Source: Escherichia coli
GTDB taxonomy: Bacteria; Pseudomonadota; Gammaproteobacteria; Enterobacterales; Enterobacteriaceae
Strand: one strand, 5' to 3'
DNA length: 45,643 bases
Assembly: GCF_003334355.1 (NCBI RefSeq)
Contig: NZ_QOWP01000030.1
Positions 1 to 12,368 of this stretch are shown one piece after another (position 1 is the first letter of the stretch; each line of letters opens with the position of its first letter). Under the pieces are notes generated by a model. That model was not told the origin of the DNA. It searched no databases and was given only the letters and a program-made list of their open reading frames with translations. The position numbers and the translations under genes were made by a program.

Positions 1-632
1 GCCTGCCGGGGCAGCAGTATGATGAGGAGTCCGGCCTGTATTACAACCGCCACCGCTATTATGACCCGCTGCAGGGGAGGTATATCACTCAGGATCCGAT
101 TGGGCTGAAGGGGGGATGGAATTTTTATCAGTATCCGCTGAATCCGGTTCAGTATATAGATTCAATGGGACTGGCATCAAAATATGGACACTTAAATAAT
201 GGCGGATATGGAGCGAGACCCAACAAACCGCCTACGCCCGATCCAAGTAAATTGCCGGACATAGCGAAACAATTAAGACTGCCATATCCTATTGACCAGG
301 CCAGTAGTGCGCCTAATGTTTTCAAAACATTCTTCAGAGCATTAAGCCCTTACGACTACACACTGTATTGCAGGAAGTGGGTAAAACCAAATCTGACTTG
401 TACGCCACAGGATGATTCCCAGTATCCAGGGATGGATACAAAGACAGCAAGTGATTACCTGCCACAGACAAATTGGCCAACAACTCAATTACCACCAGGA
501 TATACTTGTGCAGAACCCTATTTATTCCCAGACATTAATAAACCCGATGGGCCAGCAACAGCAGGGATAGATGATTTGGGTGAAATTTTAGCTAAGATGA
601 AACAGAGAACATCGAGAGGAATAAGAAAATGA
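1..632 (+). CDS. rhsO: Rhs-family protein, 3' portion (orphan Rhs core end plus C-terminal tip); 5' end lies outside the window
   Basis: Frame-3 reading from nt 3 gives [57 protein letters not shown], the conserved end of an Rhs core, continuing without a stop into the 155-codon ORF 165..632. Base composition turns AT-rich after about nt 165. Confidence 0.85.
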
Positions 633-1198
633 AAAGAGTTTTGTTCTTTTTGCTGATGATATTTGTTAGTTTTGGTGTTATAGCTGATTGCGAAATACAA
701 GCTAAAGATCATGATTGTTTTACTATTTTCGCTAAGGGTACTATTTTTTCCGCGTTTCCTGTCTTAAATAATAAAGCCATGTGGAGATGGTATCAGAATG
801 AGGACATCGGTGAGTATTATTGGCAAACAGAACTGGGTACATGTAAAAATAATAAATTCACACCAAGCGGGGCGAGACTCTTAATTCGCGTCGGGTCACT
901 ACGCCTTAATGAAAATCATGCCATCAAAGGAACGTTGCAGGAGTTGATAAATACAGCAGAAAAAACGGCGTTTCTCGGCGATCGGTTTAGAAGTTATATA
1001 AGAGCGGGTATCTATCAAAAAAAGAGCAGTGATCCAGTTCAGTTGTTGGCAGTCCTTGATAATTCAATCATGGTAAAATATTTTAAAGATGAGAAACCAA
1101 CTTATGCTCGAATGACAGCACATCTCCCGAACAAAAATGAGTCTTACGAATGTTTAATAAAGATACAGCATGAACTAATTCGTAGTGAAGAGAAATAA
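629..1198 (+). CDS. ybfC: Secreted protein of unknown function downstream of the Rhs tip; candidate cognate immunity protein
   Basis: 189-aa ORF whose ATG overlaps the rhsO stop (ATGA). N-terminus [19 protein letters not shown] looks like a cleavable signal peptide. AT-rich like the Rhs tip. Confidence 0.8.
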
Positions 1199-1279
1199 AA
1201 TCTCTTCCTGAGAAAACAAATTAATCATTGTGAAAAATTATATAACTCATGGAATAGGTGTTTATTTTGCGTTCCATTT

Positions 1280-2571
1280 GCAGGGAAAGATCACGTAACG
1301 CTACTTTTTTGTACTAAATAATTCGCATTTTATGTTTAAAAATTGAGATACTCCTTATTACCTAAAGCTGTTTTTCATAGCTTATACATGATCAAATACT
1401 CCTTACATAAATAAGGTGAACAAATGGAACTTAAAAAATTGATGGAACATATTTCTATTATTCCCGATTACAGATAAGCCTGGAAAGTAGAGCATAAATT
1501 GTCAGGCATCCTACTATTGACTATTTTTGCCGTTATTTCTGGTGCAGAAAGTTGGGAAGATATAGAGGATTTCGGGGAAACACATCTCGATTTCTTGAAG
1601 CAATATGGTGATTTTGAAAATGGTATTCCTGTTCACGATACTATTGCCAGAGTTGTATCCTGTATCAGTCCTGCAAAATTTCACGAGTGCTTTATTAACT
1701 GGATGCGTGATTGCCATTCATCAAATGATAAAGACGTCATTGCAATTGATGGAAAAACGCTCCGGCACTCTTATGACAAGAGTCGCCGCAGGGGAGCGAT
1801 TCATGTCATTAGTGCGTTCTCAACAATGCACAGTCTGGTCATCGGACAGATCAAGACGGATGAGAAATCTAATGAGATTACAGCTATCCCAGAACTTCTT
1901 AACATGCTGGATATTAAAGGAAAAATCATCACAACTGATGCGATGGGTTGCCAGAAAGATATTGCAGAGAAGATACAAAAACAGGGAGGTGATTATTTAT
2001 TCGCGGTAAAAGGAAACCAGGGGCGGCTAAATAAAGCCTTTGAGGAAAAATTTCCGCTGAAAGAATTAAATAATCCAGAGCATGACAGTTACGCAATGAG
2101 TGAAAAGAGTCACGGCAGAGAAGAAACCCGTCTTCATATTGTTTGCGATGTCCCTGATAAACTTATTGATTTCACGTTTGAATGGAAAGGACTGAAGAAA
2201 TTATGCGTGGCAGTCTCCTTTCGGTCAATAATAGCAGAACAAAAGAAAGAGCCAGAAATGACGGTCAGATATTATATCAGTTCTGCTGATTTAACCGCAG
2301 AAAAGTTCGCCACAGCAATCCGAAACCACTGGCACGTGGAGAATAAGCTGCACTGGCGTATGGACGTGGTAATGAATGAAGACGACTGCAAAATAAGAAG
2401 AGGAAACGCCGCAGAATTATTTTCAGGGATACGGCACATCGCTATTAATATTTTAACGAATGATAAGGTATTCAAGGCAGGGTTAAGACGTAAGATGCGA
2501 AAAGCAGCCATGGATAGAAACTATCTCGCGTCAGTCCTTGCGGGGAGCGGGCTTTCGTAATCTTTCCCTGC
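1280..2571 (+). mobile_element. H-repeat (ISAs1-family) element, copy 1, bounded by inverted 10-mers cagggaaaga / tctttccctg
   Basis: About 1.29 kb unit. The terminal sequence ctttttgtactaaataattcgcattttatgtttaaaaattgagata and the whole ORF are repeated again starting near 2571. Boundaries are approximate. Confidence 0.7.
1424..2560 (+). pseudogene. ybfL: H-repeat-associated (ISAs1-family) transposase, inactivated by an in-frame TAA at 1475..1477
   Basis: ATG at 1424 encodes [17 protein letters not shown] then TAA; the same frame continues as the 353-codon ORF 1499..2560. The intact paralog at 2691 reads through with Q at this codon. ybfQ is the name I recall for the short N-terminal piece. 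Confidence 0.85.
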
Positions 2572-3525
2572 TTTTTGTACTAAATAATTCGCATTTTATG
2601 TTTAAAAATTGAGATATTCCTTATTACCTGAAGCTGTTTTTTATTGCTTATACATGATCAAATACTTCTTACATAATTAAGGAGAACAAAATGGAACTTA
2701 AAAAATTGATGGAACATATTTCTATTATCCCCGATTACAGACAACCCTGGAAAGTGGAACATAAATTATCGGATATTCTACTGTTGACTATTTGTGCCGT
2801 TATTTCTGGTGCAGAAGGTTGGGAAGATATAGAGGATTTTGGGGAAACACATCTCGATTTTTTGAAGCAATATGGTGATTTTGAAAATGGTATTCCTGTT
2901 CACGATACCATTGCCAGAGTTGTATCCTGTATCTGTCCTGCGAAATTTCATGAGAGCTTTATTAACTGGATGCTTGACTACCATTCTTCAGATGATAAAG
3001 ACGTCATCGCAATTGATGGAAAAATACACCGGCATTCTTATGACAAGAGTCGCCGTAAGGGAGCGATTCATGTCATTAGTGCGTTCTCAACAATGCACAG
3101 TCTGGTCATCGGACAGATCAAGACGGATAAGAAATCCAATGAGATCACAGCTATCCCTGAACTTCTTAACATGCTGGATATTAAAGGAAAAATCATCAAA
3201 ACCGATGCGATGGGTTGCCAGAAAGATATTGCAGAGAAGATACAAAAACAGGGAGGTGATTATTTATTCGCTGTAAAAGGAAACCAGGGGCGGCTAAATA
3301 AAGCCTTCGAGGAAAAATTTCCGCTGAAAGAATTAAATAATCCCAAGCATGACAGTTACGCAATTAGTGAAAAGAGTCACGGCAGAGAAGAAACCCGTCT
3401 TCATATTGTTTGCGATGTCCCTGATGAGCTTATTGATTTCACGTTTGAATAGAAAGGGCAGCTATGGTTAGAAACTACCTGACGTCAGTCCTTGCGGGGA
3501 GCAGGCTTTCGTAAATTTGTCCTGC
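2571..3525 (+). mobile_element. H-repeat (ISAs1-family) element, copy 2, with an internal deletion of about 300 bp
   Basis: Same left-end sequence as copy 1. The ORF stops at FTFE, then the C-terminal remnant MVRNYLTSVLAGSRLS follows (compare copy 1 ...[16 protein letters not shown]). Right end approximate. Confidence 0.7.
2691..3452 (+). CDS. ybfD: H-repeat-associated protein, C-terminally truncated ISAs1-family transposase
   Basis: 253-aa ORF about 90 percent identical to the copy-1 translation over its length. Probably non-functional as a transposase. Confidence 0.85.
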
Positions 3526-3599
3526 TACAACAGGATTAACTTCACAAATATCATTTCTCAACGTCTACACTTACTCCTGTAAACCGTTCAGGAGCAGTA

Positions 3600-4109
3600 A
3601 TGAATCAGCAACGATTTGATGACAGCACCCTAATCCGTATCTTCGCCCTTCATGAGTTACATCGACTGAAAGAACATGGCTTAACGCGCGGGGCGCTTCT
3701 CGATTATCACAGCCGCTATAAACTCGTCTTTCTGGCGCATTCTCAGCCGGAGTACCGCAAACTTGGCCCGTTCGTGGCTGATATTCACCAGTGGCAAAAT
3801 CTGGATGATTTTTACAACCAGTACTACCAACGCGTAATTGTTTTGCTTTCTCATCCCGCCAACCCGCGCGATCACACCAACGTTTTGATGCACGTTCAGG
3901 GTTATTTTCGCCCGCATATTGATTCCACAGAACGCCAGCAGTTGGCGGCGCTTATCGACAGTTATCGCCGTGGCGAGCAACCACTTCTTGCGCCGCTGAT
4001 GCGTATCAAACACTATATGGCGCTTTATCCTGACGCCTGGCTTTCAGGGCAGCGTTATTTCGAACTTTGGCCGCGTGTGATTAACTTGCGCCATTCAGGA
4101 GTTTTATGA
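3600..4109 (+). CDS. ybgA: DUF1722-family protein of unknown function, co-transcribed with photolyase
   Basis: 169-aa ORF with AGGAG 5 nt upstream of the ATG; its stop overlaps the phr start (ATGA). Confidence 0.9.
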   Translation: MNQQRFDDSTLIRIFALHELHRLKEHGLTRGALLDYHSRYKLVFLAHSQPEYRKLGPFVADIHQWQNLDDFYNQYYQRVIVLLSHPANPRDHTNVLMHVQGYFRPHIDSTERQQLAALIDSYRRGEQPLLAPLMRIKHYMALYPDAWLSGQRYFELWPRVINLRHSGVL

Positions 4110-5524
4110 TTACCCATCTGGTCTGGTTTCGCCAGGATTTACGTCTGCACGATAATCTCGCACTGGCTGCCGCCTGCCGCAATTCGTCTGCACGCGTGCT
4201 GGCGTTATATATCGCTACACCACGCCAGTGGGCGACGCATAACATGTCGCCGCGTCAGGCTGAACTTATCAATGCTCAACTGAATGGGCTACAAATAGCG
4301 CTTGCGGAAAAAGGTATTCCTTTATTGTTCCGTGAAGTGGATGACTTTGTCGCCAGTGTCGAAATAGTTAAACAGGTGTGCGCGGAAAACAGCGTTACCC
4401 ACCTGTTTTATAACTATCAGTATGAAGTGAATGAGCGGGCGCGGGATGTGGAAGTTGAAAGAGCGCTGCGTAACGTGGTGTGTGAAGGATTTGATGACAG
4501 CGTGATCCTGCCGCCTGGCGCGGTGATGACCGGTAATCACGAGATGTACAAAGTCTTTACGCCTTTTAAGAATGCCTGGCTGAAACGGCTGCGGGAAGGG
4601 ATGCCGGAGTGTGTCGCTGCGCCAAAAGTTCGTAGTAGCGGATCGATAGAGCCCGCGCCATCCATTACGCTGAATTATCCTCGTCAGTCTTTCGATACTG
4701 CGCATTTCCCGGTGGAAGAAAAAGCGGCGATTGCGCAATTACGCCAGTTTTGCCAGAACGGTGCCGGAGAATATGACCAACAACGAGATTTTCCGGCAGT
4801 GGAAGGCACCAGTCGTTTGTCCACCAGCCTGGCAACGGGCGGGTTATCGCCTCGCCAGTGTTTGCATCGCTTGTTGGCGGAACAGCCGCAGGCGCTGGAC
4901 GGTGGGGCCGGTAGTGTCTGGCTTAGTGAGCTGATCTGGCGCGAGTTCTACCGTCACCTGATAACGTATCACCCCTCGTTGTGTAAACATCGTCCATTTA
5001 TTGCCTGGACGGATCGTGTACAGTGGCAGAGCAATCCCGCACATTTACAGGCCTGGCAGGAAGGCAAAACGGGATACCCGATTGTTGATGCCGCTATGCG
5101 TCAGCTTAACAGCACTGGCTGGATGCATAACAGGCTACGGATGATTACAGCCAGTTTTCTGGTGAAAGATTTATTGATCGACTGGCGCGAAGGCGAGCGA
5201 TATTTCATGTCGCAGCTGATTGATGGTGATTTGGCAGCCAATAACGGTGGCTGGCAGTGGGCCGCTTCAACCGGAACCGATGCAGCGCCGTATTTTCGTA
5301 TTTTCAACCCGACAACCCAGGGCGAGAAATTTGATCATGAGGGCGAGTTTATCCGCCAGTGGCTACCGGAACTGCGCGATGTGCCAGGGAAAGTGGTGCA
5401 TGAGCCGTGGAAGTGGGCGCAGAAAGCAGGTGTGACGCTGGATTATCCGCAACCGATAGTCGAGCACAAAGAAGCGAGAGTACAAACGTTGGCAGCGTAT
5501 GAGGCGGCGCGGAAGGGGAAATAA
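4106..5524 (+). CDS. phr: Deoxyribodipyrimidine photolyase (CPD photolyase)
   Basis: 472-aa ORF; translation recognised as E. coli photolyase, including the FAD-binding C-terminal region WREFYRH...NGGWQW. Confidence 0.95.
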   Translation: MITHLVWFRQDLRLHDNLALAAACRNSSARVLALYIATPRQWATHNMSPRQAELINAQLNGLQIALAEKGIPLLFREVDDFVASVEIVKQVCAENSVTHLFYNYQYEVNERARDVEVERALRNVVCEGFDDSVILPPGAVMTGNHEMYKVFTPFKNAWLKRLREGMPECVAAPKVRSSGSIEPAPSITLNYPRQSFDTAHFPVEEKAAIAQLRQFCQNGAGEYDQQRDFPAVEGTSRLSTSLATGGLSPRQCLHRLLAEQPQALDGGAGSVWLSELIWREFYRHLITYHPSLCKHRPFIAWTDRVQWQSNPAHLQAWQEGKTGYPIVDAAMRQLNSTGWMHNRLRMITASFLVKDLLIDWREGERYFMSQLIDGDLAANNGGWQWAASTGTDAAPYFRIFNPTTQGEKFDHEGEFIRQWLPELRDVPGKVVHEPWKWAQKAGVTLDYPQPIVEHKEARVQTLAAYEAARKGK

Positions 5525-5552
5525 CAGACGCGTCAGGCAATCGAGCCCAGAT

Positions 5553-5658
5553 GCCGGATGCGGCGTGAACGCCTTATCCAGCCTACAAATTTGTGCAAAT
5601 TCAATAAATTGCAGGAAATACGTAGGCCTGATAAGACGCGTCAAGCGTCGCATCAGGC
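5553..5658. repeat. Pair of REP (BIME-type) palindromic elements in opposite orientation between the convergent phr and dtpD
   Basis: gccggatgcggcgtgaacgccttatccagcctaca and gtaggcctgataagacgcgtcaagcgtcgcatcaggc match the canonical REP pattern. Confidence 0.8.
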
Positions 5659-5673
5659 ATCGGTGCTGGCCTA

Positions 5674-7338
<1,665 letters not shown>

Positions 7339-7425
7339 TTAATATGTCAAAAGATTGGCTATCGACGAACAGGCGAGGTAACGCTATGTTAACGGTGTAG
7401 CTATCAGAATACGGAAGGCGCGAAG

Positions 7426-8169
7426 ATGAAAAACACCGAACTGGAACAACTGATTAACGAAAAACTGAACAGCGCGGCGATTAGTGATTACGCGCCGAAT
7501 GGTTTGCAGGTGGAAGGCAAAGAGACGGTGCAAAAAATTGTTACCGGTGTCACCGCCAGCCAGGCTTTGCTCGATGAGGCAGTGCGTCTGGGCGCGGATG
7601 CGGTCATTGTGCATCATGGCTACTTCTGGAAAGGAGAGTCTCCGGTCATTCGCGGAATGAAGCGTAACCGTTTAAAAACGTTGCTGGCGAATGATATCAA
7701 CCTGTATGGCTGGCATTTGCCGCTTGACGCACATCCTGAGCTGGGCAATAACGCACAGCTGGCGGCGTTACTGGGGATCACGGTCATGGGCGAAATTGAG
7801 CCGTTGGTGCCGTGGGGCGAACTGACCATGCCTGTGCCGGGACTGGAGCTGGCTTCCTGGATTGAAGCGCGTCTGGGACGTAAGCCGTTATGGTGTGGCG
7901 ATACCGGACCTGAGGTGGTCCAGCGCGTCGCCTGGTGCACGGGCGGCGGGCAAAGTTTTATCGATAGCGCCGCGCGTTTTGGCGTGGATGCTTTTATTAC
8001 TGGCGAAGTTTCTGAACAGACCATTCATTCAGCCCGCGAGCAGGGATTGCATTTTTATGCTGCAGGTCACCATGCCACTGAACGTGGTGGTATTCGCGCA
8101 TTGAGCGAGTGGCTGAATGAAAATACCGATCTTGATGTGACCTTTATTGATATTCCTAATCCTGCATAA
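7426..8169 (+). CDS. ybgI: Nif3-family metal-binding protein (GTP cyclohydrolase 1 type 2 homolog)
   Basis: 247-aa ORF with GGAAGG ribosome-binding site; translation recognised as YbgI. Confidence 0.92.
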   Translation: MKNTELEQLINEKLNSAAISDYAPNGLQVEGKETVQKIVTGVTASQALLDEAVRLGADAVIVHHGYFWKGESPVIRGMKRNRLKTLLANDINLYGWHLPLDAHPELGNNAQLAALLGITVMGEIEPLVPWGELTMPVPGLELASWIEARLGRKPLWCGDTGPEVVQRVAWCTGGGQSFIDSAARFGVDAFITGEVSEQTIHSAREQGLHFYAAGHHATERGGIRALSEWLNENTDLDVTFIDIPNPA

Positions 8170-8191
8170 CGAATAATCAGAGGGATCGAAA

Positions 8192-8848
8192 GTGCAACGA
8201 GCGCGTTGTTATCTGATAGGTGAAACGGCGGTAGTGCTGGAACTGGAACCGCCGGTGACGCTGGCTAGCCAGAAACGGATCTGGCGACTGGCGCAGCGTC
8301 TGGTGGATATGCCGAATGTGGTTGAAGCCATTCCCGGCATGAACAATATTACGGTGATTTTGCGTAATCCTGAGTCGCTGGCGCTGGATGCCATAGAGCG
8401 TTTGCAACGCTGGTGGGAGGAGAGCGAGGCCCTGGAACCTGAGTCTCGCTTTATTGAAATTCCGGTGGTTTACGGTGGTGCAGGCGGACCGGATTTGGCG
8501 GTGGTCGCGGCGCATTGCGGGTTGAGCGAAAAACAGGTTGTTGAATTGCACTCCTCCGTGGAATACGTGGTCTGGTTTTTAGGTTTTCAACCGGGCTTCC
8601 CGTATCTCGGGAGTTTGCCGGAACAACTACACACGCCACGGCGCGCTGAACCGCGCTTACTCGTTCCGGCAGGTTCTGTCGGGATCGGCGGGCCGCAGAC
8701 TGGTGTTTATCCGCTGGCAACGCCGGGTGGCTGGCAGTTGATTGGTCATACCTCACTCAGCCTGTTTGATCCGGCGCGTGACGAACCCATCTTATTACGT
8801 CCGGGAGACAGCGTGCGCTTTGTACCGCAGAAGGAGGGAGTATGCTGA
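8192..8848 (+). CDS. pxpB: 5-oxoprolinase subunit B
   Basis: 218-aa ORF with GTG start; overlaps pxpC by 7 nt. Recognised as YbgJ. Confidence 0.9.
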
Positions 8849-9774
8849 AGATTATTCGTGCGGGCATGTATACCACTGTGCAGGATGGCGGTCGTCACGG
8901 TTTTCGCCAGTCGGGTATCAGCCACTGCGGCGCACTGGATATGCCCGCGTTACGCATTGCTAACCTACTGGTGGGTAATGACGCCAATGCCCCCGCGCTG
9001 GAGATCACGCTCGGTCAGTTAACTGTTGAGTTCGAAACTGATGGGTGGTTTGCTCTGACGGGTGCCGGTTGCGAAGCGCGGCTGGATGATAATGCCGTCT
9101 GGACCGGCTGGCGATTGCCGATGAAAGCAGGCCAGCGTTTAACGCTTAAACGCCCGCAGCACGGGATGCGCAGTTATCTGGCGGTCGCGGGTGGTATTGA
9201 TGTTCCGCCGGTAATGGGGTCATGCAGCACCGATCTCAACGTGGGGATTGGCGGGCTGGAAGGCCGTTTACTGAAGGATGGTGACCGACTCCCGATTGGC
9301 AAATCGAAGCATGATTTTATGGAAGCGCAGGGCGTTAAACAGCTGCTGTGGGGCAACCGCATTCGCGCCTTGCCGGGGCCGGAATATCATGAGTTCGATC
9401 GCGCCTCGCAGGATGCATTCTGGCGTTCGCCCTGGCAGCTTAGCCCGCAAAGTAACCGCATGGGCTATCGCTTACAGGGGCAAATTTTAAAACGCACCAC
9501 CGATCGCGAACTGTTATCTCACGGTTTGTTACCGGGCGTGGTGCAGGTGCCACATAACGGGCAGCCGATTGTGTTGATGAACGACGCACAGACCACCGGT
9601 GGTTACCCGCGTATTGCCTGCATCATTGAGGCTGATATGTACCATCTTGCGCAAATTCCGCTCGGTCAGCCGATTCATTTTGTCCAGTGTTCACTGGAAG
9701 AGGCACTGAAAGCGCGGCAAGATCAGCAACGTTATTTTGAACAATTAGCGTGGCGGCTGCACAATGAAAATTGA
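8842..9774 (+). CDS. pxpC: 5-oxoprolinase subunit C
   Basis: 310-aa ORF; overlaps pxpB and pxpA. Recognised as YbgK. Confidence 0.92.
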
Positions 9775-10498
9775 CCTGAACGCCGATCTGGGCGAAGGCT
9801 GCGCCAGCGACGCAGAGCTATTAACGCTGGTTTCCTCTGCCAATATTGCCTGTGGATTTCATGCAGGCGATGCGCAAATCATGCAGGCTTGCGTGCGTGA
9901 AGCAATAAAAAATGGTGTCGCGATTGGCGCTCACCCGAGTTTTCCCGACAGGGAAAATTTTGGTCGCAGCGCCATGCAGCTGCCGCCAGAAACCGTTTAC
10001 GCCCAGACGCTGTATCAAATTGGCGCGCTGGCAACGATTGCCCGTGCGCAAGGCGGCGTAATGCGTCATGTCAAACCGCACGGCATGTTGTACAACCAGG
10101 CGGCGAAAGAAGCACAACTGGCAGCCGCCATCGCCAGAGCGGTATACGCTTGCGATCCAGCATTGGTTCTCGTCGGGCTGGCAGGAAGCGAGCTGATTCG
10201 TGCAGGCAAGCAATATGGCCTGACAACGCGCGAGGAAGTGTTTGCCGATCGCGGTTATCAGGCTGACGGCTCGCTGGTGCCGCGAAGCCAGCCAGGCGCG
10301 TTGATTGAAAACGAAGAACAGGCGCTGGCGCAAACGCTGGAGATGGTGCAACACGGCAGAGTCAAAAGTATCACCGGCGAATGGGCAACGGTCACGGCGC
10401 AAACGGTCTGCCTGCATGGCGACGGCGAGCACGCACTGGCATTCGCCCGCCGACTACGCTCTACATTTGCCGAAAAGGGGATTGTTGTCGCAGCATAA
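9764..10498 (+). CDS. pxpA: 5-oxoprolinase subunit A (LamB/YcsF family)
   Basis: 244-aa ORF overlapping pxpC by 11 nt. Recognised as YbgL. Confidence 0.92.
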
Positions 10499-10533
10499 CC
10501 CCGCTTAATAAAGAATGAAAAAAGGATATCACC

Positions 10534-11325
10534 ATGCCTGAAGGCCCGGAGATCCGCCGTGCAGCGGATAACCTGGAGGCGGCGATCAAAGGCAAACCAC
10601 TAACTGATGTCTGGTTTGCCTTCCCGCAGTTAAAATCTTATCAATCACCACTTATCGGTCAACACGTTACCCATGTGGAAACGCGTGGTAAGGCGTTGTT
10701 AACTCATTTTTCCAACGACTTAACGCTCTACAGCCATAATCAGCTTTACGGCGTTTGGCGCGTGGTTGATACCGGCGAAGAGCCGCAGACCACGCGAGTA
10801 TTGCGGGTAAAACTGCAAACGGTTGACAAAACCATTCTGCTTTATAGCGCCTCGGATATTGAGATGTTGACCCCGGAACAACTGACCACGCATCCGTTTT
10901 TACAACGCGTTGGTCCCGATGTGCTGGATCCGAATCTGACGCCGGAGGTGGTAAAGGAACGATTATTGTCGCCGCGCTTTCGTAACCGTCAGTTTGCAGG
11001 ATTACTGCTCGATCAGGCGTTTCTGGCTGGGCTTGGCAATTATTTGCGGGTGGAGATCCTCTGGCAGGTTGGGGTGACTGGAAATCATAAAGCGAAAGAT
11101 CTCAATGCGGCGCAACTGGATGCACTCGCACACGCGTTACTGGAGATTCCTCGGTTTTCTTACGCTACGCGGGGGCAGGTGGATGAGAATAAGCATCATG
11201 GGGCGCTGTTTCGCTTTAAGGTTTTTCATCGTGATGGCGAACTGTGCGAACGCTGTGGCGGCATCATTGAGAAAACCACGTTGTCCTCGCGCCCGTTTTA
11301 CTGGTGTCCAGGCTGCCAGCACTAG
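10534..11325 (+). CDS. nei: Endonuclease VIII (DNA glycosylase/AP lyase, Fpg/Nei family)
   Basis: 263-aa ORF starting MPEGPEIRR (N-terminal Pro and Glu catalytic residues) and ending with a zinc finger CERCGG...CPGCQ. Confidence 0.95.
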
Positions 11326-12368
11326 GCCGACCGCTTCGGCGCATAGGTTGAAATAAACCGCGCAATGGCTGGCCCCGTCAGCAAAATACTGAACAGGCGC
11401 AGGGTTTGCATCGCCATAATAAGCGCCATATCGGCATTGCTCCCTGCGGCGATGACCGCCACGGTATCAAGCCCGCCGGGACTGGTGGCGAGGTAGGCAG
11501 TCATAAAATCAATATGCATAAACCGGGTCAGTCCCCACGCCATACCTGCACAAATAGCCAGCAGAGCAAAAATCGACAGCAGGATTTGCGGTAGTGGGCG
11601 TAGTGCCCGCAGTAAGATTTGTTTATCGAAACCAAGACCAATCCGCCAGCCAATTGCCATATACGCCATCGCCAGCAGCCATTCCGGTAGTTCGATGGTG
11701 ATGAGCTGACCAGACTGGAGCACTGCGCCCGCCAGCATCGGGATGAGCATCGTGCCGGAAGGAAGACGCAGCAGGCATCCCACTGTACCGGCAACGACCG
11801 CGAGCAAAATAGTAAGCAGGAGATTAATGCTCACTGGCGGGAACCAGACGATATGCTGGTTAACCGCTTCAGCGTTATCGCCCAGCATCATGCGGGTGAC
11901 CAGAACAGCGGCCCCCGCGACGAACAGCACTCGCAGATATTGCATAAACGCCACCAGGCGAATATCTGCGCCGTAATCTTGCGCCATAGCGACCATTGCC
12001 GCCGCGCCGCCAGGAGAGGAGCCCCAGGCACCGGTATTTCCAGGCAATGAGCTATAGCGCACCAATAACCAACCCACAATGGCGCTGGAAAGCAGCGTTA
12101 CCAGTAAAATTGCAAGCACGATCGGCCAGTTGACAGCCAGGGTGGTGAGAATCGAACCAGTGAGGTTTTGCGCAATCATGCAGCCAAGAATGGCCTGGGC
12201 GGCGAGAAAAGCAGAGCGGGGAAGTTGCAGAGTAATTCCGCGCATACTAAAGATGATCCCGGCAATCATCGGCCCAAGTAATAGCGCCGCCGGGAGATGT
12301 ACCGCGAGGAAACCAATAGAAAGGAGAAGTGATAGCACACATAACATTCCCCACTGCAAAACTGGCAT
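11322..12368 (-). CDS. abrB: AbrB-family membrane protein (putative regulator/transporter)
   Basis: Polytopic membrane ORF. I place the start at the ATG at 12368 (MPVLQWGML..., 348 aa) rather than the 374-codon maximum at 12446. Its 3' end overlaps nei by 4 nt. Confidence 0.85.

Follow-up and report, generated by a model that had tools for sequence, protein, structure and literature searches.

The ybgA–phr operon of Escherichia coli as a probable relic of a RudS–photolyase operon with a maintained, non-catalytic YbgA

Positions 3565-5524 of the 45,643-nt stretch of Escherichia coli DNA analysed here (the window) are the ybgA–phr operon long annotated in this model organism. Together with this identity, the origin of ybgA from a gene for RudS, the tRNA s4U8 desulfidase that is a fusion of TudS/DUF523 and DUF1722 (NAR 2024, PMC11417400), can be proposed with high confidence. 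We consider it probable, as a whole account, that the locus is a relic RudS–photolyase operon in which a non-catalytic YbgA has been maintained. The ancestor would have been an enterobacterial RudS–photolyase operon, in which RudS (a TudS [4Fe-4S] desulfidase plus DUF1722) would strip UVA-absorbing s4U8 from tRNA and photolyase would use near-UV/blue light to repair UV dimers, the two activities thus making up a light/UV-stress module. Bacteria differ in what controls this module: LitR, RpoE2–ChrR or, for Enterobacteriaceae, probably a promoter of σS type. The Escherichia lineage would then have lost the ~150-codon TudS domain through an internal, in-frame deletion that left the ancestral −10, Shine-Dalgarno sequence, ATG and entire DUF1722 domain in place. 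The features of the locus are listed in Table 1.

Table 1. Features of the ybgA–phr locus, in window coordinates
Feature	Position	Strand	Description and basis
ybfD	2691-3514	+	Truncated ISAs1/H-repeat transposase remnant adjoining the ybgA promoter region; ORF and annotation (ISAs1 family, incomplete)
Putative σS-type −10, CTACACT	3565-3571	+	28 nt 5' of the ybgA ATG; sole CTACACT in the 45.6-kb window
ybgA Shine-Dalgarno, AGGAG	3590-3594	+	Aligned with the Shine-Dalgarno and ATG of Citrobacter stand-alone and full-length RudS genes
ybgA	3600-4109	+	169 aa, DUF1722 without TudS; Pfam and NCBIfam matches, alignments
Loop N88-P89-R90-D91	3861-3872	+	YbgA codons 88-91; maps to RudS_KT S243-R244-x-T246 through P0176
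phr Shine-Dalgarno, AGGAG	4096-4100	+	In the last ybgA codons, 5 nt ahead of the phr ATG
ATGA, phr start over ybgA stop	4106-4109	+	ATG 4106-4108, TGA 4107-4109
phr/phrB	4106-5524	+	Class I CPD photolyase, 472 aa; PF00875 and PF03441, E. coli annotation
REP/BIME-like repeats	5530-5670	.	Between convergent phr and dtpD; Rfam ES036 (CssrF) at 5587-5629, 75 bits

The first-pass annotation had described YbgA as an uncharacterised protein whose functional link to photolyase was not established. Both statements are outdated: in RudS, DUF1722 serves as the domain that binds tRNA (at the anticodon arm), RudS genes often lie in operons for photolyase or the light response, and the stand-alone DUF1722 protein YbgA of E. 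coli was itself assayed, its overexpression giving no significant change in s4U and failing to rescue thiouracil growth (PMC11417400). With the operon already known and the functional link partly published, the novelty of the original observation is small; it adds little because RudS was described in 2024 and E. coli YbgA was named there as a stand-alone DUF1722. What is new here is the reading of ybgA as RudS minus TudS, in frame, behind an ancestral σS-type promoter and start codon, which refines the 'gene split' speculation of PMC11417400; the pattern of TudS loss or decay in at least five enterobacterial lineages, with the tRNA-binding half under purifying selection directly 5' of phr; and the dating of the ATGA overlap, which arose within Escherichia.

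The assignment of both genes is secure. YbgA matches PF08349 over the full model (E=7e-35; residues 41-158, model positions 1-117 of 117) and NCBIfam NF007549 with 349 bits (cut-off 237), and the phr product matches DNA_photolyase PF00875 (E=9e-45) and FAD_binding_7 PF03441 (E=8e-88). Of 5426 complete E. coli genomes, 5423 contain the 2.3-kb region at ≥80% coverage, in the annotated gene order ybfD, ybgA, phrB, dtpD, and some complete genomes (e.g. P0014, P0019, P0037) carry truncated ybgA alleles.

We then compared this arrangement across Enterobacterales, where the locus counts cover the 80 loci listed out of 396 genome matches. Among these, a DUF1722 gene lies directly 5' of photolyase on the same strand at 80/80 loci, and 62 of them encode a full TudS–DUF1722 protein (317-319 aa); both domains were found in an enteric RudS used as a control (L035), which also matches TudS 6z92. 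Syntenic examples include RudS–phr–ybgI–pxp–nei–gltA in Pluralibacter and kdp–ybfA–DUF1722–phr–…–ybgI in Yersinia. The order of DUF1722 followed by photolyase was also seen in several non-enteric contigs, and several representative stand-alone DUF1722 proteins lie on contigs too short to show their neighbours. The DUF1722 domain of YbgA is 52-68% identical to those of the enteric loci (59-63% for loci with full-length RudS), and enteric RudS genes and ybgA have in common this domain, the place directly upstream of photolyase, the promoter, the Shine-Dalgarno sequence and the start codon.

What separates YbgA from RudS is the catalytic half. Pfam reported DUF1722 alone in YbgA, with no TudS/DUF523 (PF04463), and a tblastn search of positions 1-12000 of the window with the TudS domain gave no match. 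YbgA contains no cysteine and thus lacks the three [4Fe-4S] cluster cysteines of RudS, together with the catalytic Glu/Ser, and it removed no s4U in the published assay (PMC11417400). Alignment of the upstream and N-terminal sequences places a deletion scar after ybgA codon 4, around nt 3611/3612; about four TudS residues remain at the N terminus in Escherichia, compared with the first ~17 in the stand-alone Citrobacter proteins. Since ybgA has a RudS-like −10, Shine-Dalgarno sequence and ATG but not the ~150-codon catalytic domain, it appears to be an in-frame deletion derivative. TudS is missing or has degenerated in Escherichia and part of the C. freundii complex, Trabulsiella, Klebsiella/Raoultella, Yersinia and Leminorella, and in all of these lineages DUF1722 is still directly 5' of phr among the matches listed. 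Loss or decay of TudS thus appears to have affected five or more enterobacterial lineages, whose independence we read from NJ trees alone. Insertion of ISAs1 (ybfD) was considered as the cause of the truncation and rejected, as the same architecture is present in the Citrobacter stand-alone alleles and in the IS-free Escherichia loci L005 and L006 (both titled E. coli), all of which have a terminator, not an IS, upstream of the truncated gene.

The promoter of the operon is fairly probably of σS type, a reading based on a 7-nt motif and secondary literature. The motif CTACACT agrees with CTAcacT (−13 to −7), quoted as the RpoS −10 consensus (PMC3533512), and in our alignment it is conserved at the same place across Enterobacteriaceae, whether the RudS gene that follows is stand-alone or full-length. 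In line with this, ybgA is among 22 RpoS-regulated genes, of which 20 (all except potF and osmB) were lower in an rpoS− strain (PMC3306417). A σ70 promoter/terminator scan of positions 3300-5800 gave hits not above those in shuffled sequence, with no usable internal phr promoter and no canonical terminator. LexA/SOS control was rejected as a candidate: one CTG-N10-CAG, at 4037-4052, lies within ybgA, but with 17 copies against 10.3 expected the window shows no enrichment of the motif. LexA has been reported not to bind the boxes near phr.

The ybgA stop and phr start do overlap as an ATGA, as the first-pass annotation had reported; its further claim, that this suggests obligate co-expression, holds in part. 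Co-expression as an operon is supported by the adjacency of the two genes (80/80 among the matches listed) and by the co-induction of ybgA and phrB (log2 2.27 and 2.15) in O157:H7 in early stationary phase (PMC2241611). The obligate coupling read from the ATGA, in which phr translation would need ribosomes terminating at the ybgA stop and the overlap would be the key regulatory feature, is unlikely. A coupled pair has a stop codon that overlaps or abuts the next start, as ybgA and phr do, and also a weak or sequestered downstream ribosome-binding site; phr, however, has a strong AGGAG of its own at 5-nt spacing, and no special RNA structure or RBS-sequestering fold was evident at the junction (z = 0.05). 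In favour of coupling, the overlap is kept in 7/7 Escherichia sequences (the window and six loci from a one-genome-per-species collection, titled E. coli twice, E. albertii, E. whittamii and two Escherichia sp.), and the spacers of relatives are as a rule short or absent, three non-Escherichia loci among the matches listed having 3 nt only. Yet the ATGA occurs in none of the other 71 resolved junctions, all of which, among the matches listed, have a spacer (3-40 nt in 69 of them, 65 and 163 nt in the other two), and the AGGAG-N4-5-ATG of phr is kept in relatives, there within the intergenic spacer. For C. werkmanii, a Klebsiella MAG and Raoultella, apparent ATGA overlaps were ruled out, as the tblastn alignments ran across stop codons.

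Four-nucleotide overlaps are also frequent in neighbouring operons. Among the 31 adjacent same-strand gene pairs annotated in the surrounding 42 kb, 12 overlap, and in four of these the shared stretch is exactly 4 nt (kdpE/kdpD, RHS/ybfC, ybgA/phrB and ybgO/ybgP). The ybgA/phr overlap is therefore statistically ordinary and an Escherichia-specific detail: its stop/start geometry is identical to that of ordinary ATGA-overlapping operon gene pairs, three more of which lie within 42 kb, and it is distinctive only in being datable to the Escherichia lineage. We suggest that small deletions later took out the original ybgA stop codon, after which the reading frame would have extended through the phr Shine-Dalgarno sequence as far as a TGA that overlaps the start codon of phr. 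Such an overlap would allow termination-reinitiation, which phr translation would not require.

Is YbgA itself still of use to the cell? As judged from the sequences, it is under purifying selection, with a dN/dS of about 0.15 for Escherichia ybgA and of 0.08-0.11 for the stand-alone genes of three further lineages (0.08-0.14 for stand-alone genes together), compared with 0.03-0.065 for the fused DUF1722 domain and 0.06-0.12 for phr. YbgA has also diverged markedly faster since the loss of TudS: at equal Phr divergence, identity in the domain is about 65%, as against about 87% for pairs of fused proteins. Of 84 positions that are ≥95% conserved in fused proteins, 68 (81%) are kept and 16 are changed in Escherichia. 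One of these changes falls in the loop that maps to S243-R244-x-T246 of RudS_KT, the proposed anticodon contact in which R244 is the proposed contact to the anticodon phosphate, with mutagenesis data (PMC11417400). The loop reads NPRD in YbgA against a fused consensus of T-R-R-N, and R89, present in 60/60 fused proteins, is variable in Escherichia; the mapping of R244 to P89 is indirect, through a representative (P0176) that shares the RudS_KT numbering at C241, S243 and R244. With 16 positions changed, including the R244 equivalent (Pro), tRNA binding may be weakened or re-targeted.

The properties of the protein agree with a binding role. YbgA has a pI of 9.4, 16 Arg and 0 Cys, and because it has no cysteine it cannot be a desulfidase. 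Its AF2 model is confident (pLDDT 94) and all-helical, as is the DUF1722 fold in RudS (two groups of four helices). We infer that YbgA, a basic and all-helical protein, most likely still binds RNA or tRNA in a role that is altered and non-catalytic; that it retains a tRNA-related function is possible, and we hold this with somewhat less than even confidence. A weak lead comes from the Keio ΔybgA strain, which is hypersusceptible to a LeuRS inhibitor (epetraborole), as are tRNA-modification mutants. It is tempting to go further and to see stand-alone YbgA as a repeatedly selected 'dead-enzyme', a non-catalytic tRNA/RNA binder that evolved at least five times from RudS in gut-associated enterobacteria and acquired a new function linked to photolyase expression, which might be to sense, shield or triage tRNA carrying s4U8–C13 cross-links from near-UV exposure, or to guide photolyase to damaged RNA; we regard this extended version as improbable.

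A simpler possibility is that YbgA is functionless and that its reading frame is kept only for its promoter-proximal translation signals and for ribosome delivery or mRNA stability to phr. This would fit with the lost catalytic domain and the absence of cysteine, with the lack of effect of overexpressed YbgA on s4U or thiouracil use (PMC11417400), with the faster divergence after TudS loss and the replaced R244-equivalent residue, with the extension of the ybgA frame across the phr Shine-Dalgarno sequence to overlap the phr ATG, and with the truncated alleles in P0014, P0019 and P0037. Nevertheless, the dN/dS values of Escherichia and of the three other stand-alone lineages are similar to that of phr, 81% of the fused-conserved positions are still present, the frame is full-length in 7/7 Escherichia sequences within a region found in nearly all E. 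coli genomes (5423/5426), exactly the DUF1722 domain was retained in at least five lineages, and a pure leader would need neither 169 conserved codons nor a confidently folding domain. We therefore think it rather unlikely that YbgA is only a leader. Co-translation could also reflect a protein that binds or assists photolyase directly, in chromophore loading, stability or targeting. Strictly conserved adjacency to phr, the legacy annotation 'photoreactivation-associated protein' and an overlap that could favour co-translational assembly speak for this, whereas YbgA descends from the domain with which a tRNA desulfidase binds tRNA, and it is the fused form that most often accompanies phr. E. 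coli photolyase, once purified, is fully active by itself. An AF2 model of YbgA–(GGGGS)6–Phr gave a pTM of 0.62 and a pLDDT of 78, as expected of two undocked domains, and thus lends a complex no support, although this was a crude test (a linker fusion with a shallow, genome-paired 24-sequence alignment and no PAE); likewise, the 150 best representatives included no natural DUF1722–photolyase fusion and no protein longer than 351 aa. Direct assistance to photolyase is accordingly very unlikely, and a maintained, non-catalytic derivative of RudS remains the reading that we prefer.

Two known systems provide points of comparison for such a derivative. In the light-inducible PplR1/LitR cluster of Pseudomonas (phrB, LitR and RudS), a DUF1722 gene and photolyase are likewise regulated together, forming a light/UV-stress module; this cluster, however, is under B12-dependent MerR-type LitR and blue light, whereas ybgA–phr has no nearby LitR gene and a σS-type −10. 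In Shewanella oneidensis, a gene named ybgA (SO_3386) heads an RpoE2–ChrR-dependent operon containing photolyase (SO_3386 … phrB … cfa), which is much longer and has an ECF-sigma promoter, the likeness resting on the gene name ybgA. A literature search linking photolyase, 4-thiouridine and tRNA photoreactivation returned no papers. If the retained half is functional, E. coli would offer a genetically easy system for studying a tRNA-modification 'reader' without its 'eraser' under UV or stationary-phase stress.

Finally, the REP/BIME-like repeats downstream of phr likely mark the 3' end of the operon, and for a query containing them the median number of matching places in an E. coli genome was 27.

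Both photolyase domains are present in the product of phr, and YbgA covers the entire Pfam DUF1722 model (E=7e-35) and also matches the NCBIfam YbgA equivalog model. By megablast, 5423 of the 5426 complete E. coli genomes contain the 2.3-kb region, with the annotated gene order ybfD (an ISAs1 remnant), ybgA, phrB, dtpD, within the broader neighbourhood kdp–rhsC–ybgA–phr–dtpD–ybgI–pxp–nei–gltA–sdh. The first-pass annotation thus described the overlap of the ybgA stop with the phr start correctly. The locus is the familiar E. coli ybgA–phr pair, whose upstream ORF reportedly appeared as ORF169 in the 1984 description of the phr sequence.

Features at and around the ybgA–phr pair, and further elements of the window
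Feature	Coordinates	Strand	Remarks
ISAs1/H-repeat transposase copy, rhsC region	1424-2560		decayed
ISAs1/H-repeat transposase copy, rhsC region	2691-3514		decayed
CTACACT, putative σS-type −10	3565-3571		sole copy in window; equals CTAcacT
ybgA	3600-4109	+	ORF, 169 codons, TGA at 4107-4109
AGGAG, Shine-Dalgarno of phr	4096-4100	+	5 nt before ATG
phr	4106-5524	+	ORF, 472 codons, ATG at 4106-4108
REP/BIME-like palindromic repeats	5530-5670		between convergent phr and dtpD
Rfam ES036 (CssrF) sRNA model match	5587-5629	+	in one repeat unit; 75 bits
ybgI	7426-8169		annotated 'radiation resistance protein'
nei	10534-11325		endonuclease VIII
nei/abrB 3' overlap	11322-11325		convergent, 4 nt; annotation of matching E. 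coli record
Other Rfam matches	27359-27521, 44085-44223, 45150-45639		two naRNA4 (REP325) units, CpoB/ybgF RNA thermometer, tRNA cluster

Among Enterobacterales sampled at one genome per species, all 80 loci listed carry a DUF1722 gene with a photolyase gene immediately after it on the same strand. In 62 of these 80, the DUF1722 protein is 317-319 aa long, with TudS/DUF523 as its N-terminal and DUF1722 as its C-terminal half; the Enterobacter locus used as control, L035, matched PF04463 and PF08349 as well as the solved TudS 6z92. The fused protein is RudS, whose activity as a [4Fe-4S] desulfidase turning tRNA s4U8 into U was demonstrated in 2024 and whose DUF1722 part binds the tRNA anticodon arm; the same study tested E. 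coli YbgA as a stand-alone DUF1722 and saw no change in s4U or in thiouracil use (PMC11417400). With the domain assigned and the protein itself already assayed, the earlier description of YbgA as uncharacterised is outdated.

Two loci are syntenic with the window, namely that of Pluralibacter (RudS–phr–ybgI–pxp–nei–gltA) and that of Yersinia (kdp–ybfA–DUF1722–phr–…–ybgI). Upstream alignments revealed a CTACACT box, AGGAG and ATG at about equal spacing in Escherichia ybgA, in stand-alone Citrobacter genes (DUF1722 without TudS) and in full-length RudS genes of Citrobacter, Enterobacter, Pluralibacter, Atlantibacter and Buttiauxella. Furthermore, the stand-alone Citrobacter proteins keep the first ~17 TudS residues (MSTRIPVGIRTCLTTEA…), joined straight to the DUF1722 part, and Escherichia YbgA keeps about four. 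Judging by these shared signals and residual residues, ybgA is RudS with its catalytic domain removed by an in-frame internal deletion. YbgA contains no cysteine, so an Fe–S cluster cannot be held.

The same upstream signals and residual TudS N-terminus led us to reject a gene split as the origin of ybgA. Truncation by the neighbouring ISAs1 was also rejected, since a terminator, and no IS, lies upstream of the gene in Citrobacter and in two IS-free Escherichia loci (L005, L006). Of the two ISAs1 copies, one has an internal stop and one is truncated (ybfD); the latter, second copy ends ~50 nt before the −10 box of ybgA, in place of the terminator of IS-free relatives.

The overlap itself is not special: 12 of the 31 same-strand neighbouring gene pairs in 42 kb around the locus overlap, four of them by exactly 4 nt. 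The phr gene has its own Shine-Dalgarno, and the junction RNA is no more stably folded than its shuffled controls (z = 0.05). Among the 80 related loci listed, ATGA occurs, besides the window, only in six Escherichia loci (by record title, two E. coli, E. albertii, E. whittamii and two Escherichia sp.). All 71 other resolved junctions have spacers (69 of 3-40 nt, one of 65 nt and one of 163 nt), nearly all with an AGGAG-like Shine-Dalgarno. Comparison of the junction in Enterobacter L035 ('…CGC TAC GGG CAT TAA TTC AGG AG…ATG') with that in E. coli ('…CGC CAT TCA GGA GTT TTA TGA') points to loss of the ancestral TAA through small deletions, so that the ybgA ORF now reads through the phr Shine-Dalgarno. 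The overlap would thus be a derived, Escherichia-specific state.

The putative −10 box matches the RpoS consensus quoted as CTAcacT (PMC3533512), and ybgA is among the RpoS-regulated genes with less transcript in an rpoS− strain (PMC3306417). Of the obligate co-expression proposed earlier, the co-expression stands, ybgA and phrB rising together on entry into stationary phase (PMC2241611), but obligate coupling is not shown. The same gene pairing is under LitR and blue light in Pseudomonas and under RpoE2–ChrR in Shewanella. Scans around the operon found no convincing internal phr promoter and no canonical terminator; its 3' end consists of REP-like repeats, and a query holding them matched at 27 places in the median E. 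coli genome.

TudS is missing from Escherichia and some of the C. freundii complex (these two group together in the DUF1722 tree), from Trabulsiella, from a Klebsiella/Raoultella group and from most Yersinia, RudS being still present in Y. nurmii; in Leminorella TudS is degenerate, leaving a 259-aa protein in which DUF1722 alone is detectable. In every TudS-loss lineage the DUF1722 gene is still immediately upstream of phr. The dN/dS was 0.08-0.14 in stand-alone genes, 0.03-0.065 in the fused domain and 0.06-0.12 in phr, and at equal photolyase divergence DUF1722 identity is ~65% for pairs with a stand-alone form versus ~87% for fused–fused pairs. Escherichia has changed at 16 of 84 positions conserved at >=95% among 60 fused proteins. 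One of the 16 is position 89, which is Arg in all 60, varies within Escherichia and is Pro in the window; via a representative that shares RudS_KT numbering, it maps to R244 of RudS_KT, the residue proposed to contact the anticodon phosphate and, of those in DUF1722, the one whose mutation had the strongest effect. Our reading is that constraint relaxed or shifted once the catalytic partner was gone, with YbgA still under selection.

Most likely, ybgA–phr would be what remains, as a σS-driven bicistronic unit, of a RudS–photolyase operon for light/UV stress; its first gene would have lost catalysis but kept a selected domain, which is probably RNA/tRNA-binding. The ybgA–phr operon and the DUF1722–photolyase association were already known; new here are the proposed in-frame-deletion origin, the recurrent retention of DUF1722 beside phr and the dating of ATGA to Escherichia.

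The AF2 model of YbgA is confident (pLDDT 94, ten helices); its structural neighbours are generic helical bundles only, and the structure search found no solved relative. A YbgA–linker–Phr model built from a genome-paired alignment gave a pTM of 0.62, as expected of undocked domains, and does not support a direct complex, although this is a weak test. Purified photolyase is active alone. Of 2762 representative clusters, the 150 best contained no DUF1722–photolyase fusion; outside Enterobacterales, RudS or a DUF1722 gene precedes a photolyase-family gene in 3 of 6 informative contigs. In a Keio screen, ΔybgA was hypersusceptible to a LeuRS inhibitor, listed with trmU, trmC and yheM, which is no more than a pointer to tRNA biology.

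In one of two non-enteric contigs (loci L087, 3892-5969, and L088, 4003-6944), the RudS gene and a ferrochelatase gene share 4 nt; in the other, photolyase comes after RudS and precedes a UPF0093 gene (PF03653), which we take to be HemJ-like. This arrangement suggests a porphyrin/photosensitiser theme around RudS. Twelve Escherichia phage records (H13-H24, mostly named Lambda_* or 1H12) hold a region 47-49% identical to YbgA, for example NC_049947 42767-43222. The 1H12 gene is described as a TudS–DUF1722 fusion, RudS_vir (PMC11417400), and the phage gene may be an accessory, phage-borne tRNA s4U eraser.

Across the relatives' loci L002-L092, TudS loss or decay was seen in Escherichia, the C. 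freundii complex, Klebsiella/Raoultella, Trabulsiella, Yersinia and Leminorella, and full RudS was kept in Pectobacterium, Dickeya, Rahnella, Brenneria, Erwinia and Kosakonia. The former genera are largely gut- or animal-associated and the latter mostly plant- or environment-associated, which is a pattern only. Close relatives in the C. freundii complex carry one or the other of two alleles at this locus, stand-alone or full RudS (L008-L012 and L052 versus L017, L028 and L033). The photolyase tree mixes the two forms, whereas the DUF1722 tree places the stand-alone form with Escherichia; this discord suggests allele replacement, via recombination or HGT, or old polymorphism. Shortened YbgA variants of 106-144 aa (P0014, P0019, P0037, P0064, P0091; 80-99% identity) are encoded by some of the complete E. 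coli genomes, so a minority of strains appear to have a disrupted or re-annotated ybgA.

The DNA-damage genes ybgI and nei cluster with phr. In Pluralibacter, phr and ybgI are adjacent, and in Yersinia one phosphodiesterase-like gene separates them; neither has dtpD between the two, so dtpD looks like an insertion. The tRNA cluster at the window end comprises four tRNA genes and an RtT element.
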